DNA of 64,000 nucleotides, taken from an uncultured archaeon. GTDB taxonomy: Archaea; Thermoproteota; Nitrososphaeria; Nitrososphaerales; Gagatemarchaeaceae. A program made the translations under genes and the position numbers. The stretch lies in assembly GCA_963817525.1 (NCBI GenBank), contig CAWFOU010000001.1, positions 64,001 to 128,000 on the forward strand, in the 5' to 3' direction. Shown here in pieces: positions 18,420 to 50,602 of the stretch. The notes under the pieces were generated by a model. The model was not told where the DNA came from, made no database searches, and saw nothing but the letters and a program-made list of their open reading frames with translations. The first letter of the stretch is position 1; every line of letters begins with the position of its first letter.

Positions 18420-18469
18420 TTTTTAACATTGCAAGGGGCGGCAAGTCGCAACAGCCCGGTGGTGAAGCA
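18420..18469 (+). pseudogene. Orphan promoter and 5' fragment of intron-less tRNA-Gln
   Basis: TTTTTAAC (18420-18427), then AGCCCGGTGGTG (18453-18464), identical to nt 1-12 of the spliced tRNA downstream. Confidence 0.7.
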
Positions 18470-18508
18470 CTGCCATGGGCCTCTAAATACTGACCCGTCT
18501 TATCCAGC

Positions 18509-19285
18509 GTGGAAAGGTCTAACCTTGAGGGCGCATTCTCTCGAGTCGTTCGAATCGCCAAGATCAAACCTCGAGGTAAAGGGTTCGGTGTCAAAGGGTC
18601 TGCGCATACCGTGCTGTGGTCGAGATACGACGACTTCAGGCTTGGCATTCTCATCGGTATGACATATGGTGACGGTAATCTCATCAAGAGAAGCGCTGGA
18701 ATGAGAACTGGAAGATGGCGGGTGGAGTTCTGCGAGGGTGACCTCTCACTAGTAAGAAAGTATGCTACTCTCACCAGACGACTGTTCAATCTCCAACCGA
18801 GGATAAGGAATCGTGAAACCTGGTTTGAGATGTATTACAGTAGCAGAATCGCATACGAGTTCCTTACTTTCGTAGGGGAGCATCCTAACGGGAAAAAAGC
18901 AGGGCACCTGAGGATACCCGAAGTAGCGAGATTGTACCCGGAAACCCTTAGAGGGTTTCTGTGTGGTTTGTTTTCAGTCGAGGGGTATGTAAAGGGAGGG
19001 AGATATCTCAGGTTAACTGTGGAAATGCTCGAGCGGCGGCTTTTATGGTCGGTCGCGGATGAGCTGAGGAAGCTCGGCTTCCAACCACACTCGTATGCAT
19101 ACATGAAAGACGGGAAGAGAATGTTCGGAGTCTACTTGTATGGCTTTGAAGATTGCGGCAGATTCTTGGACAAGGTGGGCCTGTTAGGGAAGAGGAGAAT
19201 AAAGTTGAGCAGGTTTTTAACCACGACACTGCAGCCGAGGTTAGCTCGGAAGCAGCCCGGTGGAGGATTGGTCCGCCGAATGTAG
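18509..19285 (+). mobile_element. Two-motif LAGLIDADG homing endonuclease gene overlapping the tRNA-Gln 5' end
   Basis: Motifs GILIGMTYGDGNL and GFLCGLFSVEGYV. AT-richer than flanks. Stop TAG lies in tRNA exon 2. Confidence 0.85.
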
Positions 19286-19369
19286 TGGTCAAGCATGCTG
19301 GCCTTTGGAAGAGGCGGAAACGTCTCGAGAGGACAGCCGGCGACCCAGGTTCGAATCCTGGCCGGGCTA
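19254..19369 (+). tRNA. tRNA-Gln(UUG) with two introns (19264-19280 at 10/11; 19309-19334 at 37/38)
   Basis: Exons 19254-19263, 19281-19308 and 19335-19369 give a 73-nt cloverleaf: A1-U72 acceptor AGCCCGG/CCGGGCT, anticodon arm CTGGC-CTTTGGA-GCCGG, GGTTCGAATCC. Both introns form BHB-type motifs. Confidence 0.9.
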
Positions 19370-19476
19370 CCTATCTCAATGGAATCCTTTGCACCCAACT
19401 GGCCCTTGAAGCCAATGACCCAGGTTAGAATGCTGGATGGGCTACAGGTTTATGTACTAGCGGGAAAGTAAATGGG

Positions 19477-19728
19477 ATGGGAATTCTGATGGGCGAGGCA
19501 GTCATAGACGAGCGAGGAAGGATAGTGATTCCGAACGAGATAAGGTCAGAACTCAAACTGAGACCCGAGCAGAAACTCAGGATATCCAGGAAAGGGAAGG
19601 ATCTGCTGCTTTCGCCGGAGGTAAGTGCGGACGAGTTCATTTCAGAGCTGAGAGGCTGCGTGCACGGCTCGAAGATCAAGCCCGCCGACCTCAAGAACAT
19701 CTGGGGTGTCGGCCATGCTCACCATTGA
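19477..19728 (+). CDS. vapB: AbrB/MazE/SpoVT-type antitoxin
   Basis: IDERGRIVIPNEIR. Overlaps the PIN gene. Confidence 0.85.
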   Translation: MGILMGEAVIDERGRIVIPNEIRSELKLRPEQKLRISRKGKDLLLSPEVSADEFISELRGCVHGSKIKPADLKNIWGVGHAHH

Positions 19729-20128
19729 CACGAACATCTGGGCCTACTACTTGGACAGTGACTGTTCGGAGCATCGATCGGTCGTCGGACCGGTGGAGAA
19801 GGCACTCAGGTCAGAGCAGATAGCGATAAACACAATAATCGTGATGGAATTGGCCCACTTTCTCGTCAAGAGCCTTGGAGCTCCGATAGGCGGAGAGAAG
19901 TTGGACGAGTTCCTTCGATTCCCGCTGGTCATCACGGACTTTGATTACCGGCACGCCCTCGGCGCAATAGAGATGCTGAAGAAGTACTCGCACTTGGGCA
20001 TCGGGGGCAGGGACGCAACGCTCTTGGCCATGATGGACGGCGCCGGCGAAAAGAGGATAATGACTCACGACGAACCGCTGAAGAAGGTCGACTGGATCGA
20101 ATCTATCGACCCAGTCAAACTGGCCTGA
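19706..20128 (+). CDS. vapC: PIN-domain toxin
   Basis: IDTNIW, E, GRDATL, MTHD acidic residues. Likely start ATG 19715. Confidence 0.85.
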   Translation: MSAMLTIDTNIWAYYLDSDCSEHRSVVGPVEKALRSEQIAINTIIVMELAHFLVKSLGAPIGGEKLDEFLRFPLVITDFDYRHALGAIEMLKKYSHLGIGGRDATLLAMMDGAGEKRIMTHDEPLKKVDWIESIDPVKLA

Positions 20129-20284
20129 GACGGCGCCAAATTCCCGCCTGAAAACCCCTAAACAGGTGCGGCCCTGGACGGGCTATCTCCTCATTTTTGT
20201 GCCCTGTTGCGTCAACGGAGTCGAATACTTCTGTGTTGATTATCTTGCTCGGCAAGCAGATGCTTGGCGAAGACCCTGGCCTGA

Positions 20285-20696
20285 CTATTTAGCGGGACTA
20301 CCGCGTAGCACGCGACCGACTGGCCTACCGTAAAGATAGCCAATCACCATTGCAAGAGCCAGAAACCTTGGTAGGTTGATTATCGCACCGACCAAATTGA
20401 AGACAGAGAGATTGTTGAGATTGACAAGAGTTGAAAAGGCTTCGATGATCAGTAGGGCAGCAAAGCTGAGAATCACCGACTTCACAATCGAATTCTTAGA
20501 TGGGATCCTGTCATAGGCGCGAACTAAGGAATAGCTGACGAAGCATCCTATGACCAACCCACCGACCAAAGGCGACCTTGTTGGCCGTTGCAGTTGCATC
20601 TCCGGAGACAATGAACGTTGAGCGAAAGTATGACGCAAGAGCAAATGTCCCAATGAAGACCAGATAGAAGAAGCCAGCCATTCTTGCGGCTAGCAT
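20285..20696 (-). pseudogene. Fragmentary membrane-protein remnants (DUF4386-like N-terminus joined out of frame to another TM fragment)
   Basis: ARMAGFFYL...IVSGDATATAN breaks off, and a hydrophobic ORF continues in another frame. AT-rich. Confidence 0.45.
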
Positions 20697-20734
20697 CCCT
20701 TGCGATTTTAAGGGGCATAATGCTCCCTTCGGTC

Positions 20735-21457
20735 ATGGGTCAGAAAGAGCGGAAAGCGAGAACAACGTCATCGCCCATCAAGGGAAAGCTAGTGACTAAG
20801 ACCTTCAACTACGACGGTGGTCGGCAGGCGACGGTGTACGTCCCGCCAGTTCCGGCCGAGGCAGTCGTGTTCGCCGGTGACGGCCAGTTGATCTCGCAGT
20901 GGGGCGGTGTCCTTGAGGCCGCCGGCGTACCGCCGACCATGATTGTCGGCATCCACCGGCTGGACGACGAGATGCTCAGGCTCCACGAGTACTCGCCGGC
21001 CTTTGACGCGGAACGGTTCGCGGCGCACGAGAAGTTCTTCGTCGAAGACGTCCGCAAATGGGCGCGGAAACGTTTCGGAGTCGCGCTGCCCGCCGAGCGC
21101 ACGGCGGTGTTCGGCGTCTCCGCGAGCGGAGAGCTCGCCCTCGCCATGGGGCTTCGCCATCCCGACATCTATGGTTCGGTCTTCTGCGCATCGCCGGGCG
21201 GAGGATACCGACCGCCTGTCGTGATGCCGGATTCACTCCCGCGCGCTTACCTCGTCGCCGGCACGTTAGAGCCGTTCTTTCTCGAGAACGCGACCCGTTG
21301 GGCGGTCGCATTGCGCGACGCAGGTGCGGAGGTTGTCATGACCGAGCGGGTTGGGTCGCACGGCGACGCGTTTTGGAGAGAAGAGTTCCCGCTGATGGCG
21401 GCCTGGACGTTCGGACGCTTAGGGACTTCTCGGACAAATCGAACCGCGAGCCTCTAA
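20735..21457 (+). CDS. Alpha/beta-hydrolase putative esterase (Fes-like)
   Basis: TVYVPP, GVSASG nucleophile elbow, C-terminal GSH. Confidence 0.8.
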   Translation: MGQKERKARTTSSPIKGKLVTKTFNYDGGRQATVYVPPVPAEAVVFAGDGQLISQWGGVLEAAGVPPTMIVGIHRLDDEMLRLHEYSPAFDAERFAAHEKFFVEDVRKWARKRFGVALPAERTAVFGVSASGELALAMGLRHPDIYGSVFCASPGGGYRPPVVMPDSLPRAYLVAGTLEPFFLENATRWAVALRDAGAEVVMTERVGSHGDAFWREEFPLMAAWTFGRLGTSRTNRTASL

Positions 21458-21519
21458 TCCTGGACGCGCTATCTCTCCGAGCCAAACTCTTATATCGTTG
21501 CCGGCATCGTTGAACGGTA

Positions 21520-21738
21520 GTGGTATCGATGGAAACCGTCAAGGTCTCAAAAAAGTATCAAGTCGTCATCCCTGAGAAATTGCGCGATGACGCCAAGATA
21601 AGACCAGGAGACAAAATGCTCGTGATAACCAAGCACGGTATCCTTCAGTACATACCGGTTCGCCCGATCGAGAAGACCAAGGGAATGGTGAAGGGTTTGG
21701 ACACTAAGGTCATTCGTGACGAGCACGACCGTCCTTGA
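21520..21738 (+). CDS. vapB: AbrB-type antitoxin
   Basis: VKVSKKYQVVIPEKLR. Confidence 0.88.
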   Translation: MVSMETVKVSKKYQVVIPEKLRDDAKIRPGDKMLVITKHGILQYIPVRPIEKTKGMVKGLDTKVIRDEHDRP

Positions 21739-22106
21739 TCTCTATCGATAGCTACGGCTGGATAGAGCGATTCACAGATGGTCCGAAGGCGAAGCACTAC
21801 AACGCCGTAATCGACCAAAGACCCGGTGAAGAGATAGTCACAGCCCCTGTCATACTATACGAAGTCTACCGGAGGATCAAGCAGTTCAAAGGAGAAGAAA
21901 TGGCTCTCGAATCCGTCGCGGCCTTGAGCGGAACGAACGTCGTTTCTCTTGATCAGACCATTAGCCTCGAGGCCGCGGATTTCAGTTTTGAACACCACTT
22001 ACACATGGCGGATGCACTTGTCTACGCGACAGCACGCCACTACGACGCGGAACTCTACACTTGCGATGAAGACCTGCGTAAGCTAAGGTCTGTGACCTTC
22101 ATCTAA
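21735..22106 (+). CDS. vapC: PIN-domain toxin
   Basis: IDSYGWIE, LYEVY, MADALVYATA, TCD. Confidence 0.9.
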   Translation: MISIDSYGWIERFTDGPKAKHYNAVIDQRPGEEIVTAPVILYEVYRRIKQFKGEEMALESVAALSGTNVVSLDQTISLEAADFSFEHHLHMADALVYATARHYDAELYTCDEDLRKLRSVTFI

Positions 22107-22231
22107 ATCGCTAGCATCGCGGCCGGATCGACGGCCCAGAAGTAGCAGGCACCCGCGAGGCAAGTCTTCGGTCGTGGAGCTCCCAACGTAGGATTGGTAC
22201 AAAATCGGGCGCGGAACCCTTGACGCCTGCC

Positions 22232-22687
22232 CTAGCGCTTCGCTTTCTTTGATTCTTCTTCTCTGATTTGCGCGGCGAGCTTGCGCGGGTCGATCCTCGT
22301 GATTCTGGGGATTCTATCGTAGGCATCGTCGGTCGAGACCATCTTGTGCTCAGGATCTTCCAGCAGGCACGTGGCTGCGTGGTAGGAGTCGAAGATGGAG
22401 GACAATCCGTACGTCGTGACAAGCGAGAGGGCGAGCAAGTCGTGGTCAGTTGTTGTTGAGGCCCAGGATAGGTTCGAAATCCTCGTCAGTGCCCCGACCT
22501 TGGAAAGGATGTCCGCAGGAGGATGGCCTGTCCTGGCGAGGAGGTAGTAGAGCTCGTGAATGGCCTCTCTGCTCACCTGTACTTTGCCAAACCTGCCAGC
22601 GACAACATGCCTCAGAATCATCTCGGCATCCTCCTTGAGCCAATCCTCGTCCTTGATGTGTGAGAAGAGGATGTCCGTCTCAATCAT
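22232..22687 (-). CDS. vapC: PIN-domain toxin
   Basis: IETDIL, IHEL, IFDSYHAAT, VSTDDAYDRI. Confidence 0.85.
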   Translation of the reverse strand: MIETDILFSHIKDEDWLKEDAEMILRHVVAGRFGKVQVSREAIHELYYLLARTGHPPADILSKVGALTRISNLSWASTTTDHDLLALSLVTTYGLSSIFDSYHAATCLLEDPEHKMVSTDDAYDRIPRITRIDPRKLAAQIREEESKKAKR

Positions 22688-22935
22688 CAAAGCTGCTTCC
22701 GCCTCGTTGCCCTGTTTCTCGCGTCTTCGCCCGCGCCGTCCTCTGCCGCTCGCTTCAGCTCCTTCACGTCTCGATCCTCCTTCAGCCAAGATCCAGAGGA
22801 CAGAAGAGGATCCGAGGGGATCGGGATGCCGAGAAAGTACGAATTCGCGTCGATGATGATCACGGATTCTCCAGGAAAGACCATCTCTCGAGGCAGCTTG
22901 ATTCTCCCTCTGTCATCGACCTTGGTAACGGCCAT
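22687..22935 (-). CDS. vapB: AbrB-type antitoxin
   Basis: MAVTKVDDRGRIKLP. Coupled to the PIN gene. Confidence 0.8.
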   Translation of the reverse strand: MAVTKVDDRGRIKLPREMVFPGESVIIIDANSYFLGIPIPSDPLLSSGSWLKEDRDVKELKRAAEDGAGEDARNRATRRKQL

Positions 22936-23162
22936 TCTTACCCCAAATGCCAGAATCTGCCCCAATTATTATATCTTCCCCCACATTAGTGAATTTGCCC
23001 ACGGGCGGGCGACGGATTCGAACCTGTTTGGTGGCGGGCCCTCAACCGGCTGTTTTTCTCCCAATTCGCCAGCCGTGCCCAGAGGTGTTTCTCGGCCGGG
23101 TCACTGATGCCCAACGCGGCTGTTAAATAACTCACGGCCGAGAGACGCCACTCGACCACCCG

Positions 23163-23642
23163 ATGCCCGAATTTCGCATCCGGCGCGCTTCCATCCGGGA
23201 CCTGCGCACGATGGTCCACCAGCGCCGCGCGATGTTCGTCGACATGGGGCCCGCGACACAGGAGCAGCTCGCCGCACTCGACAGGACGTATGCAAGGTTC
23301 GTGCGGCGGGAGATGAAGGCAAGGCGCCTCTCCTGCTACCTTGCCGAGACGAAGGAAGGGAAGGTCGTGGCCGGCGGCGCGATCTGGCTCAGGGAGACTC
23401 CCCCTCGCGTCAACTTTCCAGGCGGCAGGATACCCTACCTCATGTCCTTTTACACCGAGCCAGCGTTTCGAGGCAAGGGTCTCGCCACCCGAATCGTGAA
23501 GGAGGCCATGAAGTGGGGCAGCGAGAGGGGATATCCGTGGATGATGCTCCACGCCACCGCGGCGGGGAGGGGCGTCTACGAGAAGCTCGGCTGGGAGCCG
23601 ACGAGCGAGATGCGATACAAAATCACGATGGCGGGGAATTGA
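23163..23642 (+). CDS. GNAT N-acetyltransferase
   Basis: YTEPAFRGKGLA, GRGVYEKLGW. Paralog at 55799-56329. Confidence 0.9.
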   Translation: MPEFRIRRASIRDLRTMVHQRRAMFVDMGPATQEQLAALDRTYARFVRREMKARRLSCYLAETKEGKVVAGGAIWLRETPPRVNFPGGRIPYLMSFYTEPAFRGKGLATRIVKEAMKWGSERGYPWMMLHATAAGRGVYEKLGWEPTSEMRYKITMAGN

Positions 23643-23648
23643 GGGCGC

Positions 23649-23836
23649 CTACGGACGATGGAACTGTTCGGGCTTTTGAGGAAGAGCCTGAAGGGAATCA
23701 ATCACCGGTCTTAGCTGCTTCTCCTTCTCGGTCAGCGAGTACCGCATTGAAAGGGCCGCGCGCTCCGCACGTCTCTTTTCACGATTTCCTCCGACTCTAG
23801 GTACTTCAAGACCCTAGAGAGAGTCTTGGGCTCCAT
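23649..23836 (-). pseudogene. HxlR-family regulator remnant (truncated, frameshifted)
   Basis: PKTLSRVLKYLESEEIVKR...RPF, then in another frame RYSLTEKEKQLRPVIDSL. Confidence 0.6.
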
Positions 23837-23898
23837 GCCTACCCCGAGCTTGGCCTTAGCCCAGGAGGGGCTAGTCCGCAATCCGAGCCCGAGGCCTT

Positions 23899-24447
23899 CT
23901 AGTCGAACAATTCGAGGCCGCAGGTGGCGAGGCTAGTCTTGACCGTCTCGACGTCCCGAGGGATCAGCTCCGTCCCGATCTGCGTTCGCGCCATGAGCTG
24001 GTTGGGCGGCCTGTCTGGAGGCGCGGGAGGGGGATGGTCGAGCCAGTGCTCGAGGCCGAAGAAGTGGCCCATCTCGTGCGCGACCGTGCGGTAGTCGGGC
24101 ATTTTCGTGTCGTCGACTATCACGAACGTCTTCTTGGGCCGGAACACCTTCCCATTCGACCCTCCGATCGAGCGCACGAAGATCCCCGTTATCTCATGAG
24201 GCTCTGGGCCTGTGAGGTCGAGGAGCGCGTCGGTGTCCCCCAGCCGGTCGTGGGCTGTTTGGACCAGGTGTTCGAGCCTCACTGGGTCGAACTCCCACTC
24301 CGACACTGACGCTTCGAAGCGGATGTCCGCCTGACGCCATATCTCGTTCGCCCGCCGGAAGATCTCGACAACCTCCTTGACCGTCCTTGATGAAGAGTGG
24401 ACAGGGTCGTTCTTTGCGATAAGGGCTCTGACCTTCAGCGTCGGCAT
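23899..24447 (-). CDS. Metzincin-type zinc metalloprotease
   Basis: HEMGHFFGLEH and downstream QLM Met-turn. Confidence 0.75.
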   Translation of the reverse strand: MPTLKVRALIAKNDPVHSSSRTVKEVVEIFRRANEIWRQADIRFEASVSEWEFDPVRLEHLVQTAHDRLGDTDALLDLTGPEPHEITGIFVRSIGGSNGKVFRPKKTFVIVDDTKMPDYRTVAHEMGHFFGLEHWLDHPPPAPPDRPPNQLMARTQIGTELIPRDVETVKTSLATCGLELFD

Positions 24448-24569
24448 CCGAGGAGTCGTCTGTCAAGGGCGGAGATCTTGCCGGTAAAAATTTTGTGATG
24501 GCTGAGGAAGACCCCGTGCGTCCGGTCGACTTGACTTTATGAGCAAGACCTCCTCGGGGGAGCAGGGCC

Positions 24570-25535
24570 ATGCCGAAGCCATACGGGGCAGACGACCCTA
24601 TCGCGGACCCGCAAGCCGTAGGCGCGCCCATAACTCGCACGGCGATCTTTCTTGTGGTCACCGTTAACCCAGGGGCCGCAAGCCGAGCCGCGGTCCGCTC
24701 CTTGTGCCACGACCTCTCCGCCCTCGTCCGCGCGGTGGGCCACCGCGTTCCCGAGGGGGAGCTCTCCTGCATCGCGGCTTTCGGGTCGGAGGCGTGGGAC
24801 TCGCTCTTCGGGAATCCACTGCCTGCGGAGTTGCACAAGTTCAAGGAGATAGCGAGCGGGAACCGCCGCGCGGTCTCGACCCCGGGCGACATCCTCTTCC
24901 ACATCCGCGCGGAGACGATGGACCTCTGCTTCGAGCTCGCGACCGAGGTGATGGCCAGGCTAGGTGAAGCGGTCTCCGCCGTCGACGAGGTCCACGGCTT
25001 CCGCTTCTTCGACCTTCGCAGCATCGTCGGGTTCGTCGACGGGACGGAGAACCCCCAGGACGATGAGTCCGTCAGGGCGACCCTCGTTGGGGACGAGGAC
25101 AAGGCCTTCGCGGGGGGCAGCTACGTGCTAGCGCAGAAGTACCTCCACGACATGACCGCGTGGAACGCGCTGACGACCGAGGAGCAGGAGGGGGTGATCG
25201 GACGCACGAAGCTCACGGACATCGAGCTCGACGACTCTGTGAAGCCGGCGTACGCCCACAACGCCGTGAGCAAGCTCGTGGAGGACGGGGTCGAGATAAA
25301 GATACTCAGGGACAACATGCCCTTCGGGGAGGCGGGTAAGGGGGAGTTCGGGACATACTTCATCGGGTACAGCCGGTCGCCCCGCACGACCGAGAAGATG
25401 CTGCAGAACATGTTCGTCGGAAAGCCGCCGGGCAACTACGACAAGCTCCTGGACTATAGCCGCGCGGTCACCGGGGGCCTGTTCTTCGCACCCTCCTCGA
25501 CCTTCCTGGACGCGGTCGCCGTCGACGAAGTGTGA
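24570..25535 (+). CDS. Dye-decolorizing (Dyp-type) peroxidase
   Basis: GFVDGTENP, QKYLHD, IGRTK, ILRDNMPFG. Confidence 0.93.
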   Translation: MPKPYGADDPIADPQAVGAPITRTAIFLVVTVNPGAASRAAVRSLCHDLSALVRAVGHRVPEGELSCIAAFGSEAWDSLFGNPLPAELHKFKEIASGNRRAVSTPGDILFHIRAETMDLCFELATEVMARLGEAVSAVDEVHGFRFFDLRSIVGFVDGTENPQDDESVRATLVGDEDKAFAGGSYVLAQKYLHDMTAWNALTTEEQEGVIGRTKLTDIELDDSVKPAYAHNAVSKLVEDGVEIKILRDNMPFGEAGKGEFGTYFIGYSRSPRTTEKMLQNMFVGKPPGNYDKLLDYSRAVTGGLFFAPSSTFLDAVAVDEV

Positions 25536-25646
25536 CCCGGAAAGACTTTCTACGGCCAGGGCGCCCGGCTGAGCGACGACGGTCTGTGACAATAATCGAC
25601 GCGTGGGTCTTGCTAATCGAGATAAACCGCTGAGGGTCGACGGGGC

Positions 25647-26196
25647 CTAGGCGCTCTGTTTCTTCCTTGCCTTCGGGTGGAAGTTCTTCCCTGCCCACGC
25701 GTCCGGGTACCTCTCAGGATGAAGGGCAAAGGCAACAAGGTGCGCGGCGTCTACGCGGATGAGGAGGTCAACCTTGAGCAAGGCGTCCCTCCCTCCCTCG
25801 AACGCCTCGACCCACTCATGCCCTAGCTCCTTGAAGCCCGAGGTCCCCTTCCGGAGCGGGACGGGGGTCCCGTGGCCGATTATCACGAGGTGGTTCTCAT
25901 AATACGTGAACCCCATGGTGGGGTTCATGAACAGCCGCTTGACCGTCGTCGACCGCGAGTCGGTGGCGAGGATGAACTTCCCGTGGAGGAACGCGGCCGA
26001 CCGGGGCGCTGCCCTGGGCTCACCCTTAGTTCACGGTCGCCACCGCTACGAGGTTTATCCCTTGGAAGCCAGCGAGCTGCCCCGCCGAAAGCCTGTGGCT
26101 GGCGTCGAAGCCCGAGTAGCGGATGTTCGGGGACTTTTCGTAGCTGGAGTCAAGCAGATCCTGAAGCTCGTCCAGCTCCGCCTTGGTCTCGAACAC
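25647..26196 (-). pseudogene. Pyridoxamine-5'-phosphate oxidase-family protein, frameshifted near 26028
   Basis: MFETKAELDELQDLLDSSY...VAVATVN, then a frame change to KGEPRAAPRSAAFLHGKF. Confidence 0.65.
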
Positions 26197-26279
26197 GGGG
26201 TCGATGACCTCCGAACGATATTTATCCGTTGGGCGCTTTTGGGAGACCTTCCGACGCCGACTAGAGGGTCACCCTACAG

Positions 26280-41337: not shown

Positions 41338-41355
41338 CTTTGCATTACACCTCTT

Positions 41356-43074: not shown

Positions 43075-43221
43075 GCCGGCTTGCGATTCCGAGCTTTGCT
43101 CGGACCGTCGCCCCGCGGCTCTTCGCCTGCAATCGCCTGATAAGTCTCGCCGAGTTGAGGATGAAGGTTAGCTCGGAGGGCGGCGTTGGCTTAAGAGGTG
43201 GCGGGGAGGAGGGTGAATTTT

Positions 43222-44010
43222 ATGAGCCTCGGAGCGATTGGCCCTTGTCCCGCTGCTTGCGGGTGCACCGAGAGATACTGTGGAAACTGCCATACCCCTT
43301 CTGAATGCGCCAACTGCTCATCTTGTTGCTGCGCTCCGGCACATCGGTCGTGGAGGCGGACGCGAATGGAGGCTGGGATCAGGGTCGAGTACTTCAGCTC
43401 CGCGTGGATGATCGTCGAGGCCTTGGGCTCGATAGGATTTGGTCTGATGGCGGGAAGCTTCGCCCTGTTGGCCTTCGGGGGAGATTCCATCATCGAGCTC
43501 ATCTCAGGTCTTGCGGTATTGACGCATCTGCGAAGGGATACGGCCGGCTCGGAGATTCGAGGCCTAAGAACAGAACGATTCACCGGCGCGCTCCTCTTCG
43601 CTCTGATTCCCGTCATCGGGCTAGGATCGGCCTACTCCTACCTGACGGGATCGAGGCCGGAGGGCTCGCCCCTTGGAATCGCCATCGCGGTTGGCGCGGT
43701 TATCGTGATGCCCTACCTTTACTTCCGGAAGAAGAGGATAGGCGAGGAGACTCGCTCGTCGCCGCTCAAGATTGATGCCATAGAGTCGGTCACTTGCCTC
43801 TTCATGTCGATCGCGCTGCTGGGAGGCTTGCTGGCCGAGTATTTCTTCGGCCTCTGGTGGGCCGACTACTTGGCCACAGCGGTGATACTCGCATTCGTAG
43901 CACGAGAGGCCCTCGAATCATACCACGAACTGCATGAAGACGAGTCGGGAGCGGAGGCAATCAGGGAAGCGCGGGCGCCTCGTGGGACTCAGCCCGCTGA
44001 GAGTACGTAG
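43222..44010 (+). CDS. CDF-like cation transporter TM domain with Cys-rich N-terminus
   Basis: GSFALLAFGGDSIIE, LKIDAIES, GLWWAD. N-terminal CPAACGC...CANCSSCCC. Confidence 0.8.
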   Translation: MSLGAIGPCPAACGCTERYCGNCHTPSECANCSSCCCAPAHRSWRRTRMEAGIRVEYFSSAWMIVEALGSIGFGLMAGSFALLAFGGDSIIELISGLAVLTHLRRDTAGSEIRGLRTERFTGALLFALIPVIGLGSAYSYLTGSRPEGSPLGIAIAVGAVIVMPYLYFRKKRIGEETRSSPLKIDAIESVTCLFMSIALLGGLLAEYFFGLWWADYLATAVILAFVAREALESYHELHEDESGAEAIREARAPRGTQPAEST

Positions 44011-44156
44011 ACCCCGACTGCAGCCCCCTGGCAGAACGCGTCTGTTGGGCCAGACCTGCTGCCGATAGCGAATGGTGTCGCATTCGCATGGACTTTTTGC
44101 GAAGAAACCCTCTAACTAACAACCCGAGTGCATGTCGTAATCGGTTTGGCCACGCG

Positions 44157-44843
44157 CTACCCGTAGAAGTAGATGAACGCCGCAACCAAGACCAAGGCCA
44201 GGGCAACGAGGTAGTCCACATACTGAGGGCTAATCTTGGAAAGCGCTTTCGACAGTCCCATGGTTGCCAAGAAGACAACTATGACTAGAGATGCGACAGC
44301 TGCCGCGATGAAGGCGCCGACCATCACGTAGGTGTACCCGGCCCCGAACCCGTTCGCAACGAGGATGAACGGTACGAGAGCGGGATCCGGTATCACGCTG
44401 ACAACCATCGAGACGCTCTCGGCCTTAGTCCCCTCCTTGGCTTCTCTTGCGGCCTTTACTACGATGTAAACCGCGATGCCCAGCAGGAGAACGACCGCGA
44501 AGAGAGTCACATAGTAAGCGGGAAAGAACAGAGCGCCCACCGCGGCTATGACCAAAGAAAGGGCTGCGGAACTTACGGAGTGGCCCAGCCCAATCGCGAC
44601 GGCGAGTAGGTAGGTTCTGGATCTAGCGAGGTGCTTCTTATGTGAAGTTATGGTAACGGGGAGCCAATGGTCCGGAGCGACCATGTGGAGCGCTGACAGA
44701 GCTATCACAACACCGAGCAAGACTGACGGGGTGGTAGTCAAGTCGATATTGCACAAACTGCCAGCGGTATGCCATTGGCACGAACGGCGCTCCGTCCATT
44801 GGAGCCAGATTCTAATTCCGCTGGAGACCACAGCAACAGCCAT
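44157..44843 (-). CDS. NiCoT/RcnA-like nickel/cobalt transporter (true start may be ~44740-44760)
   Basis: ALHMVAPDHWLP and GLGHSVSS motifs. Confidence 0.7.
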   Translation of the reverse strand: MAVAVVSSGIRIWLQWTERRSCQWHTAGSLCNIDLTTTPSVLLGVVIALSALHMVAPDHWLPVTITSHKKHLARSRTYLLAVAIGLGHSVSSAALSLVIAAVGALFFPAYYVTLFAVVLLLGIAVYIVVKAAREAKEGTKAESVSMVVSVIPDPALVPFILVANGFGAGYTYVMVGAFIAAAVASLVIVVFLATMGLSKALSKISPQYVDYLVALALVLVAAFIYFYG

Positions 44844-44946
44844 GATTGAGAGCCGGATGAGGTCTGTCCTGGAGTTCCGATCCTCGGGCTCACCTGGTTC
44901 TGCCGTCTGCTAGTTAGCCGTTGAGCCTTCGCTTCGAAGAACATCT

Positions 44947-45210
44947 TCATCTTATCTTGGCGACGACCTGCTGAAGCTCCGCCAAGCTTTCGGTCAGGGG
45001 CTCCTTCCGGTCCGCTCTCGCCACGCAGTCTTCGACGAGGTCATCCACGATCACTTGGATCACGCTGTCCAGCGCCGACCTTACCGCGACTATCTGGTGG
45101 ACGATTTCGGAGTACGATCGGCCGTGGTCTAGCATCTCGTTGACCGCGTGGACGTGGCCATTAATCCTAGCTACCCTCCTCGCGACCTCGGCCCTCTTGT
45201 GGGTTGCCAT
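44947..45210 (-). CDS. CsoR/RcnR metal-sensing repressor
   Basis: RVARINGHVHAV...QIVAVRSAL...EDCV. Confidence 0.88.
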   Translation of the reverse strand: MATHKRAEVARRVARINGHVHAVNEMLDHGRSYSEIVHQIVAVRSALDSVIQVIVDDLVEDCVARADRKEPLTESLAELQQVVAKIR

Positions 45211-45215
45211 ATATG

Positions 45216-45236
45216 CCATCCGGGGGGAGGGGATGG
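45216..45236. promoter_or_regulatory. Putative CsoR/RcnR operator
   Basis: CCATCC-GGGGGGAGG-GGATGG, an inverted repeat around a G-tract as is typical for this family. Confidence 0.5.
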
Positions 45237-45365
45237 GTGTATTTTAGCTATCGCCATTTCTCCGACTGGCTCAATCTCGGCGCGGTCTGCGTCCGATGAC
45301 CTCTAAGGTCGTCTTTGCAACGCAGGTTGTTGACGAAGAAATACGAGCAATCTCTGGCCGTCTGG

Positions 45366-46685
45366 TCACAGGCTAGTGTAGATTAGCGCGATGTTGAGCG
45401 CGATTATCGCTCCCCCGACGACGAGCCCGATGATGGCCGTAGCGCGCCTGTTCACATAAGGGCCCATCACCTGCTTCTTGCACGTGTACCAGATCAACGG
45501 GATCATGGGGAGGGGGATGAGGATGCTCAGGAAGACCTGGCTGTAGAAGAGGAGCGCCAGCGGGCTGATCCCCAAGAGTATGCAGAGGGTCGTGGGAAAG
45601 ACGTTGATGCCTCTCGTGATGATCCGCCTCAGGTATGGGTTCACCTTGACTCCGAGCAAGCCGGTCATGACTTCCTGCCCGGCGAGGGTCCCTACGACCG
45701 ACGAGGCGATCCCTGAGAACAGGAGCGTTATTGCGAAGATCACCGCCGCACCGGTGCCGAAGAGCGGGCCCAGGATCTCGTACGCCTGACTGATTTGCTG
45801 GATGTTCGTGTACCCGTGACCGTAGAACGCCGCGGCGCCCACGACCAGTATCGCCACGTTCACGCATCCCGCGATCGCAAGGATCAGGACCGTCTCCCGA
45901 AGGTGGAGCCCGAGGAACTTCCTCTTCGGGCCGTGGTCTTCCGCCTTGATCCCCCACCTTCCGAGCTTGGAGGAGGTGAGCGACGAGTGGAGCCAGAGGA
46001 CATGGGGCATGACAGTGGCGCCGACTATACCGACGACGACGAGCAGGGTGCCGTTGGAGAAGTCCGGCGAAACGGAGCCCAAAGCGAACAGCCTGGGGTT
46101 CGGCCCGACCCTGAGGAGCTCGTAGAGGAAGCCTATGGCTATCACCGAGACGAAGACCATGAAGAAGTACTCTATCACGCGGAAGCGGTTGCTGGTCAGC
46201 GCCAGGAGGATGATCACGTCAAGGGCTCCGAAGATGCTGGCGTAAAGGAGGGGGATGCCGAAGAGTATGTTCAGCGCGATGACGGTCCCCAGATACTCGG
46301 CCAGGTCGGTCGCGGCTATCGCGACCTCGGCCGCCAGCCAGTACGGGATTATTCGCTTCCTGGTCTTCAGCGAGGCCCGGAGCAGCTGCGGGAGGCTCTT
46401 CCCCGTCGCGATGCCAAGCTTTCCAGACATGTACTGGAGGACCATGGCCATCGCGCTGGCCATCCAGACTGCCCAAATCAGGGCGTAGTTGAACTCCGAC
46501 CCCCCGGCGATGTCGGTCCCGAAGTTCCCCGGGTCGATGTAGGCCAGGCTGACTATCAGGGTAGGGCCAAGGTACCCTACAAAGTCGCGGACGGAGATGT
46601 GCGGGTTGTTCTTCTGCTGGTCCGTGACCTCGGGCCTGTCGGTGGTTTCCTGGGGTGCGAGGCTTCTGGCCGGAGGCGAGCTCAT
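45366..46685 (-). CDS. mntH: Nramp divalent metal transporter
   Basis: AYIDPGNFGTD, GATVMPHV, GTLAGQ. Confidence 0.95.
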   Translation of the reverse strand: MSSPPARSLAPQETTDRPEVTDQQKNNPHISVRDFVGYLGPTLIVSLAYIDPGNFGTDIAGGSEFNYALIWAVWMASAMAMVLQYMSGKLGIATGKSLPQLLRASLKTRKRIIPYWLAAEVAIAATDLAEYLGTVIALNILFGIPLLYASIFGALDVIILLALTSNRFRVIEYFFMVFVSVIAIGFLYELLRVGPNPRLFALGSVSPDFSNGTLLVVVGIVGATVMPHVLWLHSSLTSSKLGRWGIKAEDHGPKRKFLGLHLRETVLILAIAGCVNVAILVVGAAAFYGHGYTNIQQISQAYEILGPLFGTGAAVIFAITLLFSGIASSVVGTLAGQEVMTGLLGVKVNPYLRRIITRGINVFPTTLCILLGISPLALLFYSQVFLSILIPLPMIPLIWYTCKKQVMGPYVNRRATAIIGLVVGGAIIALNIALIYTSL

Positions 46686-46721
46686 GGGTCGGTTTGTTTG
46701 GCCAACCACTCTCTATATAAA

Positions 46722-46737
46722 CTTAGACGCCTCTAAG
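46722..46737. promoter_or_regulatory. Putative DtxR/MntR operator
   Basis: CTTAGA-CGCC-TCTAAG next to the mntH TATA box in the divergent intergenic region. Confidence 0.55.
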
Positions 46738-46870
46738 ATTTTTTGAGGCTTCGAAAATTCATCGACCATGCGCATTTTATTCTACTAGTCTAAAATCTGT
46801 GAGCCCGCCCCAGGACCGCGGCCCTCCCAAGCTTTTTATCGCAAGGCAATGGCGACCGTCGTCGAGGACC

Positions 46871-47305
46871 TTGGCGAAGGCCGTTCCCCTGAAGAACGAG
46901 ACACCCAGGCTAGAGGACTACCTCGAGGCGATCTACTCCCTCTTCGAGGAGAAGGGCTACGCGAGCGCGGTGGACATCTCCGACCGCCTCCAGGTGAGGC
47001 CCCCCACTGTCACGAGCATGGTGCAGAAGCTGGCGAAGAAGGGCTACCTGATACACGAGCCCTACAGGGGGATGAGGCTGACCGAGAGCGGCGAGAGGCT
47101 TGCCAGGTCGGTCGTCTCGAGGCACCACGTCATATCAGAATTCCTTGGGATGATCGGGGTGGAGGACAAGGTCGCCTACGAGGACACCGAAGGGATAGAG
47201 CACCACATGCAGCCGGTGACCTTCCGCAAGATAGAGCGCCTAGTGGAGTTCCTGCGGAAGAACCCCGGCCAGCTGAAGGCCATCCGGGAATACGTGGACG
47301 GCTGA
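46871..47305 (+). CDS. mntR: DtxR/MntR metal-dependent repressor
   Basis: EDYLEAIY, PPTVTSMVQKL, EGIEHH. Confidence 0.9.
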   Translation: MAKAVPLKNETPRLEDYLEAIYSLFEEKGYASAVDISDRLQVRPPTVTSMVQKLAKKGYLIHEPYRGMRLTESGERLARSVVSRHHVISEFLGMIGVEDKVAYEDTEGIEHHMQPVTFRKIERLVEFLRKNPGQLKAIREYVDG

Positions 47306-47356
47306 GGCACGCCCGACCAAGGTTTATCTCGGCCTGCCGGTCCGACGGGTGTTGCA

Positions 47357-47632
47357 TTGAGGGTCCTCAAGCTGGAGTACGCGCCCACCGTGATCCTGAT
47401 GCTCGCGGTGGCGCAGATGGCCTCCTTCGCGAACGCCGGGCTCTTCCAGGATAGCTACGCCGTGGCGGGGCTCTTCAGCTTCTGCTCGCTGGTCAGCGGG
47501 GTGGCCGTCTTTTTCTACCTCAGGAACAGGGACGTCACCGCGGCCCGAATAGCCATAGCGACGGGGGTGTTGTTCTTCATCATGCTCTTCGCCATCGGCG
47601 AGTACCTGTTCGCCACCTACATCCCGAGCTGA
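47357..47632 (+). CDS. Small three-TM protein
   Basis: Host-like codon usage, hydrophobic helices. Confidence 0.65.
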   Translation: MRVLKLEYAPTVILMLAVAQMASFANAGLFQDSYAVAGLFSFCSLVSGVAVFFYLRNRDVTAARIAIATGVLFFIMLFAIGEYLFATYIPS

Positions 47633-47659
47633 CGCGGTCGACGCCGGCCGCGGCTTCGC

Positions 47660-49240
47660 TCACCTTGCGGGCTTTACGAGGGCCTGGATCTGCTTTTGGC
47701 TCGTCTGCGCCAATTTGGTCATCCCGCCCGATAGGCTCTGGCTCTTGATCCCCTTGGATTGGAGGACCTGGGCCGCCCTGAGGGACGTGTTCCCCGACAT
47801 GCAGACGAGGATGGCCCTCTTGTCTCCGCTGGAGCCTCCCGCGTCGAAAATGGCCTTGAGCGACGGAGGGACCTCCTGCCCGGTGATGAGCTTCACGACG
47901 TCGCCCGGCGATGCCACCTTCACGGAGCTCTCAGGGACGCCTAGCGAGCTGGCGATCAGCCTCTTCCCTTCTTCGCTCGGGACGTATCCCATGTGCGTCC
48001 AGACCACCTCGTCGAACCTCCCCGGCTTGGCCCTTGCACCCTCGACGGTCACCTCTAGCCCTTCCTCTTGCTCCTCCTGGCTCTCCTCGGATTCCAGCAC
48101 GCGCCTGTACTTCTTCGCGCCGTCCGCCAGGACCACCACGAACTCCCCGCCGATCCCGAAGTTCACCATCTGAAGGACTGCGTAGAGCGCGAGCGCGCTG
48201 CTCTCGCCGATGTCGAACCCTCTCCTGACCATAAAGCCGAAGAGCCTCTTCGCCTGGTCGAAGTCGACCTCGTGCTCGCCCGCGTACCTCTCGGGCTCGT
48301 AGAACTTCAGCCCCTCGGCCTTGCCCTTGGTGCGTATACCCGCCACGTCCTTCCCCTCGGGCGGGAAGACCACATGGACGACCTTCTTGCCGCCGTACTT
48401 GGCCTGCACGTACCTGCTCAGGCCCACCGATGTCCCGCCCGTCCCGAACGCGCAGACGACGCTGCACTCCCCGAGCGAGTGCCCGAGCCCTCGCAGCTGC
48501 TGGTCGATCTCAGGACCCGTGATCGTCGCGTGGGCGTCGACGTTCTGCTCGTTGTCGTACTGCTCGGGGCAGTAGCCGCCGTATGCGTCAGCGAGGACCT
48601 TGGCGAGGTTGATGACGTCCTGCCTCGCGAGGAACTCCTCGATCCTGGGCCGCGAGGAGTCGAAGACCGCGATGTCGAGCCCTATCTCGGCGAACCTCTC
48701 GCGCATGGCCGTGGCCACGACCTTGGCGAGCAGCATGTTGGGGTCCATCTGCATGCCTGGAGCGGGGCAGACGTCCACGTCGAGGTCGACCGTCTTGACG
48801 TTGCTCTTCTCCAGCTCCTCGAGCACTCCCTCTTGCAGCTTCCTTGACACCAGCACTACGACCTTGACCCCCAGGTTCCCCAGGAGTCCAAGCGCTATCC
48901 CGAAGTTGCCAGAGGTGGCCTCGAAGACCACCATCCCCCTCCTCAGCATGCCCGACTTGATCGCCTCGTGGACGATCTGCGTGGCGGCCCTGCTCTTCAC
49001 CGAGCCTCCCAGGAGCGGCGCTTCCAGCTTCCCAAAGACTCGAAAGTCCCTGTCCGACAGGTCGAGCCCGTACTCGTCGCGCGCGCACTCCTTGAGCGCC
49101 TGCGTGATGTCTAGCAGCGGCGTCGGGTTGACCACCTCGCCCCCCTCAACGTGGGGGGTCCTGGCCAGTATCTGCTGCTCGAACGCCCGGAGGAGCTCCG
49201 TGTCGACGTCGGCGCCGCCCGCCTTGACGGGTGCCTGCAT
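47660..49240 (-). CDS. PLP-dependent cysteine synthase-like enzyme with C-terminal rhodanese-like domain
   Basis: GGSVKSRAA, EATSGNFG, FGTGGT. C-terminal LVCMSGNTS. Confidence 0.85.
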   Translation of the reverse strand: MQAPVKAGGADVDTELLRAFEQQILARTPHVEGGEVVNPTPLLDITQALKECARDEYGLDLSDRDFRVFGKLEAPLLGGSVKSRAATQIVHEAIKSGMLRRGMVVFEATSGNFGIALGLLGNLGVKVVVLVSRKLQEGVLEELEKSNVKTVDLDVDVCPAPGMQMDPNMLLAKVVATAMRERFAEIGLDIAVFDSSRPRIEEFLARQDVINLAKVLADAYGGYCPEQYDNEQNVDAHATITGPEIDQQLRGLGHSLGECSVVCAFGTGGTSVGLSRYVQAKYGGKKVVHVVFPPEGKDVAGIRTKGKAEGLKFYEPERYAGEHEVDFDQAKRLFGFMVRRGFDIGESSALALYAVLQMVNFGIGGEFVVVLADGAKKYRRVLESEESQEEQEEGLEVTVEGARAKPGRFDEVVWTHMGYVPSEEGKRLIASSLGVPESSVKVASPGDVVKLITGQEVPPSLKAIFDAGGSSGDKRAILVCMSGNTSLRAAQVLQSKGIKSQSLSGGMTKLAQTSQKQIQALVKPAR

Positions 49241-49329
49241 GTTTCCAGCGTCGGGGATGCCGCCCTGAATATAAGGCGAATGATTCGGCAGCGCAATCAG
49301 TTTATCAGCCGTCGCGCCCAGGAGCGCTC

Positions 49330-49407
49330 ATGGCAGGCCCCAAACCCGTCAATTTCATAGCCGACGACGCGAAGCTCGGGAAGAACGTCAAGGTGTGGCA
49401 CTTTTGA
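49330..49407 (+). pseudogene. Orphaned original N-terminus (25 aa) of the hexapeptide acetyltransferase
   Basis: MAGPKPVNFIADDAKLGKNVKVWHF*, host-like codons, TTTAT at 49301. Aligns with AKIGKGVSIWNL of the 50102 gene. Confidence 0.85.
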
Positions 49408-49446
49408 TGGCAGGGGCGCTAATATTCTCCTAACACTTCATGATGC

Positions 49447-50105
49447 ATGCCGTGGGTACTTGGGAAAGCAGGCAATCACCCAATTGGTCGAAAATCCAAC
49501 CGCAGGACGAGGAGGAAGATACTATGGTCAAATGAGGAAATCCGCAACCTGAAATCGTCGTATTCGAGCGAGCCGATTTCTGTGTTGCTGGAAGTCTTTC
49601 CATTGCGTAGCTGGCGTTCGATTTCGGCAAAAGCAATAACACTGGGCCTGAGGAGACCGCGTACCGCGCCGCTCAGCACCACATTGAAATCTGAAGGCGA
49701 CATAGGATTCTGGGCGGGAATGGTTATCGCCGACGGTTCAGTCCTTGAAACTTGCATAAGCTCGGGGACAAGAAGAGCGAGATCCGAAGGAGGCGGAGCA
49801 AGACCGCCAAGATATTATAGCATGCCTCAAGTCAGGATTTCGATGGAAGACAAAGAGTCCCTTGAGCGGGTAGGGCGATTGTGGGGCAGGAAAGTGACCT
49901 TTTGCCAGACGAGTTCAACTGGTAACAGTGTTTGGAGCGTCAAGTCGGTGGCAAGAAAGCGATGGAGTTGCTCCAGCTGATGATGCCATATCTAGCTGGG
50001 CCGAAAAAGAAAAAGGCTCTCTATTTGCTGCAGAAATACGCTGATAGGACTAGCTTACCTGTTAAAGTGAAAGATACCTTTTTTCCATTTAGTGGAATGA
50101 CTTGA
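49447..50105 (+). mobile_element. Single-motif LAGLIDADG endonuclease with N-terminal HTH; frameshift near 49941
   Basis: WSNEEIRNL...RSWRSISAKAITLGL, GFWAGMVIADGSV. The -1 frame continues QVGGKKAMELLQLMMPYLAGPKKKKA...GMT* to TGA 50103-50105. AT-rich. Confidence 0.8.
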
Positions 50106-50602
50106 AACCTTCGAGACTCGGAAAGGGGGCGGTGGTTGATCCCAGCGCGAAGATCGGCAAAGGCGTCTCAATTTGGAACCTGTCATACGTGGGATCGAGG
50201 ACTCGAGTGGGCGACAACGTCTCGATAGGCTCCCTCGCCCACGTAGACTACAACGTCTGGATAGGCGCCGACACCAGGATAGAGGGCTCGGTCTACATCC
50301 CCCCGATGACGAGGATAGGGAAGAACGTCTTCATCGGGCCTGCAGCGGTCATCACAAACGACCCCTACCCGATGAGCAAGAAGATGGTGGGCGTGACAAT
50401 AGATGACGGCGCCGTCATCGGGGGCGGTTCGGTCATCAAGGCTGGCGTCACGATAGGAAAGAACAGCGTCGTCGCGATGGGCGCGGTGGTGACCAAGGAC
50501 GTGGCCCCTGGGGTCGTGGTCCTGGGAGTCCCGGCCCGCGTCGTCTACACCAGAGAGGAGTATGACGCTAAGAAGCTGGCCTGGGAGTCTGGAAAGACCT
50601 GA
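50102..50602 (+). CDS. Hexapeptide-repeat acetyltransferase (WbpD/WlbB-like) with replacement N-terminus
   Basis: LbH repeats, FIGPAAVITNDPYP, GVPARV. TTG start overlaps the endonuclease stop. Confidence 0.9.
   Translation: MKPSRLGKGAVVDPSAKIGKGVSIWNLSYVGSRTRVGDNVSIGSLAHVDYNVWIGADTRIEGSVYIPPMTRIGKNVFIGPAAVITNDPYPMSKKMVGVTIDDGAVIGGGSVIKAGVTIGKNSVVAMGAVVTKDVAPGVVVLGVPARVVYTREEYDAKKLAWESGKT

Follow-up and report, generated by a model that had tools for sequence, protein, structure and literature searches.

The 64,000-nt stretch of DNA analysed here (the window; G000:C1:64001-128000) is part of the 2.82-Mb, 15-contig genome of an uncultured soil archaeon, and it contains two loci at which a free-standing, putative homing endonuclease gene lies at the 5' end of a host gene. 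The host gene of the first locus encodes tRNA-Gln(UUG), that of the second an LbH (hexapeptide-repeat) acetyltransferase, and all parts of the two loci listed below are on the + strand. At both loci the endonuclease gene (HEG1 and HEG2, respectively) is found between a complete target gene and a displaced fragment of the same gene end, termed the orphan, and the complete gene begins with a replacement head. We consider it likely that both are end-replacement homing elements, in which a free-standing endonuclease gene is accompanied by a cleavage-resistant version of its target gene's 5' end.

Parts of the two loci

The tRNA-Gln(UUG) locus is composed as follows:

18420-18426, + strand: host TATA-like box TTTTTAA of the original tRNA-Gln gene, with the same box and spacing before the plain genes L026 and L035
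18453-18464, + strand: orphan 5' fragment of 12 nt, AGCCCGGTGGTG, identical to nt 1-12 of plain tRNA-Gln(UUG) alleles
18509-19285, + strand: HEG1, a two-motif LAGLIDADG open reading frame (ORF) of 258 aa with GTG start, LAGLIDADG_3
19214-19220, + strand: internal TATA-like box TTTTTAA within the 3' end of HEG1, present in 9/9 occupied alleles including 3 without endonuclease
19243-19249, + strand: extra 7-nt copy of the acceptor 5' strand, AGCTCGG, 4 nt ahead of the new head
19254-19263, + strand: replacement head, tRNA-Gln nt 1-10, AGCCCGGTGG, where ARAGORN starts the tRNA after removal of the mini-intron
19264-19280, + strand: bulge-helix-bulge (BHB) mini-intron of 17 nt between tRNA nt 10 and 11 (D-stem), predicted from fold and covariation
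19281-19308, + strand: tRNA-Gln exon, nt 11-38, including the anticodon TTG
19309-19334, + strand: canonical anticodon-loop intron of 26 nt (ARAGORN i(39,26)), the same as in the plain allele of G012 (L026)
19335-19369, + strand: tRNA-Gln 3' exon up to the discriminator base

The upstream box is probably the original host promoter, which now stands ahead of the orphan and the endonuclease gene, and the promoter context of the orphan is that of the relatives' plain tRNA-Gln(UUG) gene (L026). The internal box would serve as the promoter of the rebuilt tRNA. HEG1 matches Pfam LAGLIDADG_3 in two stretches with E 7.4e-8 and 33 bits (cut-off 22.5), as expected for a two-domain enzyme, and its orthologue in G022 matches with E 7.9e-7. 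The 3' end of HEG1 covers the internal box, the new head and the mini-intron, and as its stop codon (19283-19285) falls within the tRNA D-loop, the ORF overlaps the new head. The 7-nt acceptor copy is found in 9/9 occupied alleles, 1-4 nt before the new head and degenerate in some, at the distance from the internal box at which the tRNA 5' end would lie, and it probably represents a leader or a relic. The genome has just one other Gln tRNA, which reads CUG.

The LbH locus has the corresponding parts:

49301-49306, + strand: TATA-like TTTATC, ~29 nt ahead of the orphan's ATG and conserved upstream of the L005 and L010 orphans
49330-49407, + strand: orphan head of 25 codons plus TGA, equal to the N-terminus of 12 empty alleles
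49447-50105, + strand: HEG2, a three-helix N-terminal domain plus a single LAGLIDADG-like domain, in two frames
50102-50185, + strand: replacement LbH head, codons 1-28, whose TTG start overlaps the HEG2 TGA stop (50102-50105)
50186-50602, + strand: LbH acetyltransferase body, common to the empty alleles (Pfam Hexapep, E 4.1e-24)

The full LbH gene thus extends from its TTG start over 50102-50602, and TTTATC would be its host promoter. Beside the junction, the new head differs from the orphan at 12/27 nt. Intact HEG2 proteins have 219 and 221 aa (in G012 and G001, respectively), and an alignment of HEG2 contains an invariant G..M..ADG stretch, which we take to be the LAGLIDADG motif. Only 11 relatives of HEG2 were found in a large protein collection, and a HEG2 profile search of the sequences in the PDB gave 0 matches.

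The first-pass annotation had placed two loci of common layout at these positions, and both indeed read in this way. It had also described the endonuclease ORFs as AT-richer, which agrees with their G+C contents of 49.8-49.9% (HEG1, 49.8%), ~12 points below the 61.5% of the window, and it had the rebuilt gene overlap the endonuclease 3' end, as is the case at the D-loop of the tRNA as well as at the TTG of the LbH gene. Its description of a second, diverged 5' end needs to be amended for the tRNA: a second head is present there, but the exon part has not diverged, as 10 nt are identical, and it is a 17-nt insert that parts the head from the body.

Alleles, mini-intron and distribution among relatives

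The comparison set within the genus covers 23 genomes for the endonuclease searches, 21 distinct tRNA-Gln(UUG) loci and 20 LbH loci. The layout of the first locus recurs in 8 further genomes and that of the second in 7. Among the tRNA-Gln(UUG) loci, 12 are plain, with neither a D-arm insert nor an endonuclease gene, and 9 are occupied (G000, which is the genome of the window, G019, G022, G020, G009, G007, G013, G010 and G005). The new head and a mini-intron of 17-19 nt occur in 9/9 occupied alleles, and the mini-intron in 0/12 plain ones. The other parts of the cassette are less well preserved. The orphan is intact in 4 occupied alleles, mutated in 2 (G022, G020) and absent from 3 (G009, G010, G005), and these 3 are the ones that have lost the endonuclease gene. 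The HEG1 frame is open in three alleles (G000, G022, G007) and, with one ambiguous codon, also in G020, for which another count gives one TAA within the match; G019 and G013 have broken copies, and only a 3' remnant of 70-100 nt is left in G009, G010 and G005. A search for tRNA-Gln(UUG) loci detected no other one in these three genomes, and as their alleles keep the new head, the new head is sufficient, being the sole one available in several genomes. The orphan of G020 carries a T at nt 7, as does the plain allele of G006, and the present 3' strand of G020 pairs with G, which suggests that the tRNA body was co-converted from a donor.

The LbH alleles form a similar series. In 12 empty alleles the orphan peptide continues straight into the body, 8 alleles are occupied (G000, G017, G012, G014, G001, G005, G013, G008), and a further empty allele exists in G002. 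All occupied alleles have the alternative head. The orphan is retained in G000, G012 and G001, where the left junction varies by 0-6 nt, it is reduced to an 8-codon remnant in G013, and it is undetected in G017, G014, G005 and G008. HEG2 is intact in G001 and G012, frameshifted in G000, truncated in G017, degenerate in G013 and G005 (30-37% identity), and undetectable at E <= 1 in G014 and G008. The start-over-stop overlap is kept in 8/8 occupied alleles, as TTGAA in 7 and as ATGAA in 1, and the ratio of non-synonymous to synonymous substitution rates (dN/dS) of the new head is 0.12 (from 11/28 pairs, the others being saturated), compared to 0.13 for the body. As the orphan and the endonuclease gene are eroded or gone in alleles in which the new head persists, the new head is the working one. 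The idea of the first-pass annotation that the cassettes displace the 5' end of the host gene and supply a working replacement is thereby supported, and the empty alleles that it had asked for exist, since the orphan sequence runs directly into the gene body in 12 of the 20 LbH loci and in the 12 plain tRNA genes.

Beyond these alleles, the native LbH N-terminus of G023, which belongs to a neighbouring genus (L086, G023:C2:61192-63674), resembles the replacement head and not the common head. G023 may represent the donor or source lineage, or a fully decayed old invasion.

The insert in the D-arm of the occupied tRNA genes has a conserved structure. In the 9 sequences, a helix forms between nt 5-8 of the head and the 4 nt in front of a bulge of 3 nt at the insert's 3' end; the 5' boundary lies in another 3-nt bulge, and the insert is closed by an inner helix. 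The central 4-bp helix is paired in 9/9 alleles and the inner helix shows compensatory changes at 4/4 pairs, which is the core of a BHB motif. Altogether, 98.5% of 66 cells are paired and 4/8 pairs have changed on both sides; the covariation score was reached by 0/500 shuffles, and slid controls were 18-52% paired. After in-silico removal of the insert, ARAGORN recognizes a tRNA-Gln(ttg) that begins with the first base of the new head in 9/9 occupied alleles. Of the untouched occupied alleles, 4/9 give no call, 2/9 a wrong isotype and 3/9 a tRNA-Gln whose boundaries are shifted or whose intron is misplaced, and all 12 plain genes are called. Neither ARAGORN nor Rfam at gathering scores finds a tRNA in the raw window, and when the whole genome was searched with a tRNA model, the locus was matched at model positions 9-63 only (window 19279-19361); the miss is explained by the mini-intron. 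The term “non-splicing” that the first-pass annotation had used for both elements fails for the tRNA, where a BHB mini-intron of 17-19 nt with covarying helices, and not the whole insert, would have to be spliced out.

The genome encodes two EndA paralogues (~185-190 aa), both of which comprise an N-terminal and a catalytic domain, which is compatible with the (alpha-beta)2 type of EndA. According to the available text of PMC5829648, this type cleaves non-canonical introns. Other tRNAs of the same genome also have D-arm inserts. Two tRNA genes (G000:C1:38490-38543 and C7:743115-743168) match model positions 9-63 only and contain inserts in the D-arm region, and with only 27 full tRNA matches in the genome, many of its tRNA genes are probably interrupted.

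Each endonuclease is restricted to one site per genome. Close homologues of HEG1 were found at the tRNA-Gln locus only, in 6/23 genomes of the genus, and in 0/400 other genomes sampled from the class, and a scan of public genome contigs gave one locus only. HEG2 occurs at the LbH locus only, also in 6/23 genomes, and both elements are found together only in G000, G005 and G013. The two endonucleases are unrelated and independently distributed, and the view that the two insertions were independent events thus held up.

The surroundings of the tRNA and the rest of the genome offer some further observations. About 30 nt past the working tRNA, at 19399-19444, lies a degenerate copy of the 3' two-thirds of tRNA-Gln, from the anticodon arm to the acceptor end and without the intron. 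G019 has a 31-nt copy of the T-arm and acceptor 218 nt downstream, and none was found in G022 and G012. The fragment in the window may be an att-like scar of another element. Directly after the tRNA, two overlapping small ORFs (83 and 140 aa, 19477-20128) look by eye like an AbrB-type antitoxin and a PIN-domain toxin. Genome-wide there are 31 LAGLIDADG_3 matches in G000, of which about nine are in short free-standing frames; many others, probably inteins, are part of open frames with 500-1800 aa. Free-standing LAGLIDADG ORFs are found ~50-300 nt from tRNA genes, in the same or the opposite orientation, at C7:401125-401603, C7:1045108-1045664, C7:269484-269942, C1:706071-706571 and C1:676465-676896 of G000. 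A search with the 5'-terminal and the 3'-terminal 12-16 nt of the 6 tRNA genes at these 5 loci revealed no orphan tRNA ends beside them.

A scan for peptide repeats around 12 LAGLIDADG-bearing frames (10 candidates and 2 controls) was underpowered, as the LbH control merely equalled the null maximum and the tRNA control remained below it, and it led to a radical-SAM locus outside the window (G000:C10:8661-16910, L080/L127). There, the radical-SAM gene (8661-10376) is followed by an ORF on the opposite strand of 395 aa, if an ATG, GTG or TTG start is allowed (402 aa between stops), whose LAGLIDADG_3 match stays below the threshold (E 3.9e-4). Beyond this ORF, a 34-nt repeat of the gene's coding segment for '...NVIPEWYR' occurs, and an orphan C-terminal tail, 84-90% identical, lies 6.3 kb downstream. 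Such tails form arrays in relatives, with 4 copies in 5 kb in G014, 3 copies and shorter fragments in G012, and at least 2 copies in G018. The ORFs of 301 and 302 aa between the tail copies of G014 and G012 have no Pfam match, and we do not call them endonucleases.

Proposed end replacement and its alternatives

How could such cassettes enter a gene without disrupting it? In the proposed mechanism, the enzyme would cut the unoccupied allele near its 5' end, in tRNA-Gln at about nt 10-13 and in the LbH gene around the codons for W-H-F / S-Y-V. Repair would copy the occupied allele, with the gene body on one side and the orphan head with its promoter on the other side as homology arms, and the old head of the recipient would be left behind upstream, with the endonuclease gene, the new head and then the old body after it. 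The functional unit would consist of the endonuclease gene and the downstream resistant head, and the upstream orphan with the host promoter would be a homology arm and probably also the promoter of the endonuclease gene. At both loci the replaced end differs at the presumed cleavage site, by the above-mentioned 12/27 nt in the LbH gene and by the interruption of 17-19 nt in 9/9 tRNA alleles, and the new heads are thus predicted to resist cleavage.

The two elements would achieve this resistance in different ways. The LbH element would rely on recoding, and the recoded N-terminus would be translated from the TTG that overlaps the endonuclease stop, possibly by translational coupling; the host promoter probably drives a single transcript for the short orphan ORF, the endonuclease and the enzyme. 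The exon bases of the tRNA are fixed by the acceptor pairing, and the head therefore cannot be recoded, which is why the mini-intron would have to provide the resistance. The tRNA element would accordingly bring a TATA-like box of its own and a head with the same 10 nt, together with a BHB mini-intron of 17 nt that splits the target site in the DNA, and the host splicing endonuclease and ligase would restore the tRNA, the leader being trimmed by RNase P. Later on, the endonuclease gene and the orphan would decay, and the new head (and the mini-intron of the tRNA) would stay.

Which other readings could account for the two loci? The one that survives best, which we nevertheless regard as improbable, assumes an old, immobile arrangement that resulted from one ancestral rearrangement per locus, with plain and empty alleles that arose later by gene conversion or loss and with no homing today. 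The divergence of HEG1 tracks that of the hosts, with identities dropping from 71% (G022) to 60% (G020), 53% (G007) and 47% (G013), a trend that fits old vertical inheritance with repeated loss; many endonuclease copies are broken, which speaks against recent mobility, and the absence of HEG1 from the 400 genomes sampled elsewhere in the class agrees with immobility as well. However, on a tree of rpoB fragments from 20 genomes, which is a single-gene tree with 7/17 forks unsupported, at least 7 state changes are needed at the tRNA locus and at least 6 at the LbH locus, and both states of both loci occur in both rpoB clades that have 100/100 support. The tree of the LbH body shows the same two groups as rpoB, and a single clade of occupied alleles is rejected (p-AU 1.4e-5). 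In both major clades, the sequence ahead of the tRNA orphan is of the type of the local lineage and matches its plain alleles, and the orphan polymorphism of G020 suggests a tRNA body that came from a donor. Moreover, the derivatives without endonuclease gene that were seen keep the new head, and none reverts to the plain state by simple deletion, and intact ORFs persist in several species. The identity of the LbH heads does not follow that of the bodies either (74% for the head and 77% for the body between G012 and G001, 67% and 83% between G012 and G000), but as the head has only 84 nt, this discordance is weak evidence.

Still less probable is an integration by a recombinase, with an attP site that contained a copy of the gene 5' end and with the LAGLIDADG ORF as a passenger, as in the model for the tRNA-Thr of Caldiarchaeum. 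An orphan, an insert and a rebuilt gene are the usual trace of integrative elements at tRNA genes, as the available text of PMC3293823 indicates, and the degenerate tRNA-Gln 3' fragment at 19399-19444 hints at other integration events. Against this, the insert of ~0.8 kb is small, the endonuclease gene is the only long ORF in each insert and no integrase was seen there, the same layout exists in a protein gene with a different endonuclease, and no genome has either endonuclease at more than one site. Orphan and new head also have just a short repeat in common, of 10-12 nt in the tRNA, and in the LbH gene it has diverged at 12/27 nt.

Slightly below this in probability stands the possibility that the whole insert is one large intron, which would be a BHB intron from the orphan to 19280 in the tRNA and in the LbH gene an mRNA intron that begins at the stop of the orphan and extends to the body. 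The orphan would then be the true first exon and the internal head incidental. Such an intron is conceivable in that the orphan and the internal tRNA head share 10 nt, so that either could pair with the 4 nt before the 3' splice site, and the window orphans are intact at both loci. This does not explain why several alleles have no detectable orphan yet possess the new head (G009, G010 and G005 for the tRNA; G017, G014, G005 and G008 for LbH), and the orphan of G020 mismatches the present acceptor 3' strand, just as that of G022 is mutated. The new LbH head is under purifying coding selection with its start conserved over the stop, and the local hairpin with the internal tRNA head has a covarying inner helix, whereas no such pairing was seen for the orphan. 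An intein was rejected, as the endonucleases are out of frame with the host gene, and so was a group I intron, as there is no Rfam match in the window. That the layouts are an assembly artefact of a metagenome-assembled genome has a negligible probability, since, for all its 15 contigs, 8.75% estimated contamination and threefold occurrence of one radical-SAM gene at 100% identity, the same junctions exist in 8 (tRNA) and 7 (LbH) other genomes and contigs from four soil DNA runs span both junctions of the first locus without differences.

These contigs stem from one study, the source sample of the genome itself may be among the four runs, and single runs leave parts of the stretch uncovered; together with the recurrence in relatives they settle the check for mis-assembly, which the first-pass annotation had called for, in favour of genuine layouts. 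The identical radical-SAM segment is found at C10:9135-10376, C7:43867-45108 and C14:6045-7286 of G000, which suggests redundant contigs in the bin.

Apart from these alternatives, several findings weigh against homing by end replacement as proposed here, and some of them concern HEG2. The copy in the window consists of the frames 49447-49980 and 49932-50105 with one frameshift near 49941-49959, and because of this frameshift it is probably dead. It stays below the Pfam LAGLIDADG cut-off (E 0.16, 12.7 bits compared to 22.5), and the intact HEG2 proteins of G001 and G012 have no LAGLIDADG match in Pfam. In a fold comparison based on an AlphaFold model (pLDDT 69.3), I-MsoI and I-CvuI occupy Foldseek ranks 1-7, with weak values (E 0.07-0.2, probability 0.80-0.94, ~70 aligned columns). 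At the tRNA locus, only one possible pair lies outside the 3' bulge where the canonical hBHBh' motif has its outer helix, and the BHB motif must therefore be called relaxed. The 7-nt acceptor copy is not accounted for by the model, the orphan may be used as 5' exon in genomes in which it is intact, and no RNA runs that contain 18400-19400 were listed.

What would end replacement mean for the origin of tRNA introns? It is very probable that this particular mini-intron was delivered by the element, and we lean slightly towards the view that it serves as immunity. The wider proposal, that homing-endonuclease cassettes deliver non-canonical BHB introns to archaeal tRNA genes, with the mini-intron as an immunity device that splits the target site, is put forward tentatively, and it is rather unlikely that endonuclease cassettes are a general route of tRNA intron gain. 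For Asgard tRNA genes, several routes of arrival have been tested and the arrival of tRNA introns remains open, according to the available text of a 2026 preprint (10.64898/2026.10.13.758758). The elements described here would provide one concrete route for the gain of a non-canonical intron by an archaeal tRNA gene, and as the alleles form a series from the plain gene via the cassette to a gene with only the intron and the new promoter, this route is directly testable. In the end state, represented by G009, G010 and G005, what is left looks like an ordinary tRNA gene that has a D-arm intron and a new promoter. Were the route general, past homing would have left some of the non-canonical introns scattered among archaeal tRNA genes as its scars.

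Free-standing endonuclease genes are generally thought to be limited to intergenic sites, where they spare host genes, as stated in the available text of PMC13619312. The elements may be an archaeal way round this limit, as they would substitute the start of a gene together with its expression signals. The same strategy would let free-standing endonuclease genes invade 5' or 3' ends of protein genes, and the tail copies of the radical-SAM locus may be an example of an invasion of the 3' end.

Comparison with known systems

LAGLIDADG genes occur within BHB introns of archaeal rRNA genes and within inteins. These share the enzyme family and the host splicing machinery with the elements described here, but their ORF resides inside the spliced element, whereas here it lies outside, in the 5' leader region of the tRNA or upstream of the coding sequence. 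A division of labour between enzyme and intron is known as collaborative homing, which was reportedly described in phages by Bonocora and Shub (2009) and by Zeng et al. (2009). A free-standing endonuclease is paired there with an intron at its target site (PMC6279837, in its available parts). As proposed for the tRNA-Gln element, the target site is interrupted by the intron of a neighbouring gene, so that the intron provides immunity and the enzyme mobility. The phage intron is a self-splicing group I intron and, as far as the available account goes, no gene end is duplicated, whereas here a protein-spliced BHB intron of 17-19 nt would come together with a head and a promoter.

Displaced gene ends are known from fungal mitochondria. 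In Endoconidiophora resinifera, C-terminal duplications of cob and atp6 have degenerate LAGLIDADG ORFs between the copies, and more generally LAGLIDADG or GIY-YIG ORFs separate a host gene from a partial copy of its end that has been displaced (PMC6279837). In contrast to our loci, these cases concern 3' ends and organelles, and the available text of that paper mentions neither a tRNA target nor promoter delivery nor a mini-intron.

The first-pass annotation knew of no description of the 5'-replacement layout in archaea, but the tRNA-Thr of Caldiarchaeum has it (PMC3293823), and non-splicing end replacement as such is established for the yeast WHO elements (PMC7282813). In the tRNA-Thr(GGU) of Caldiarchaeum subterraneum, a 5' fragment of nt 1-27 is followed by a 1,868-bp insert with an 813-bp ORF and by a rebuilt tRNA that has acquired an intron at 24/25 (Sugahara et al. 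2012, PMC3293823). The available parts of that report interpret the insertion as the integration of a pNOB8-type plasmid, classify the 813-bp ORF by SVMProt only, and suggest that the intron could protect the element from further invasion. Common to both cases are the upstream 5' fragment, one ORF on the same strand beside the tRNA, and a non-canonical intron gained within the duplicated part. The tRNA-Gln locus differs in that its ORF is a LAGLIDADG ORF, where that of Caldiarchaeum was classed by SVMProt only, the insert has 0.8 kb, the orphan 12 nt, and the intron is at 10/11. Beyond this case, our literature search, with subscription journals and supplements outside its scope, found no archaeal 5'-end replacement by a homing endonuclease. 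The combination of an archaeal host, a replacement of the 5' end, delivered expression signals and a protein-spliced mini-intron as interrupter was not found in print and is new to the literature searched.

The closest parallel are the WHO elements of Torulaspora and Lachancea, which replace the 3' end of FBA1 without splicing (Coughlan et al. 2020, PMC7282813, in its available parts). As in the loci of the window, if these are read as proposed, the endonuclease gene lies beside its target and forms a unit with a resistance-conferring copy of one target end, the old end of the recipient is pushed aside, decays and serves as homology arm, and the insert as a whole requires no intron or intein splicing. 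The differences concern the gene end (3' instead of 5'), the host (a eukaryotic nucleus instead of an archaeon) and the protein (fusions of intein and zinc-finger parts instead of plain LAGLIDADG-type enzymes), and cleavage has been demonstrated experimentally for WHO, whereas here it is predicted. Compared to WHO, the elements described here must also restore expression signals, either by a TATA-like box or by the placement of a start over a stop, and one of their targets is a tRNA that requires a mini-intron. Membership in the WHO/HO family was not found, as LAGLIDADG_3 is the sole Pfam match of HEG1 and HEG2 has none above the cut-off; the elements thus appear to work like WHO from outside that protein family. 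The radical-SAM locus in turn looks like a WHO-type replacement of a 3' tail, i.e. a mirror image of the two loci of the window. Taken in this way, the WHO principle known from yeast would extend to archaea, to 5' ends and to an RNA gene, and it would offer a new reading of the Caldiarchaeum case of 2012.

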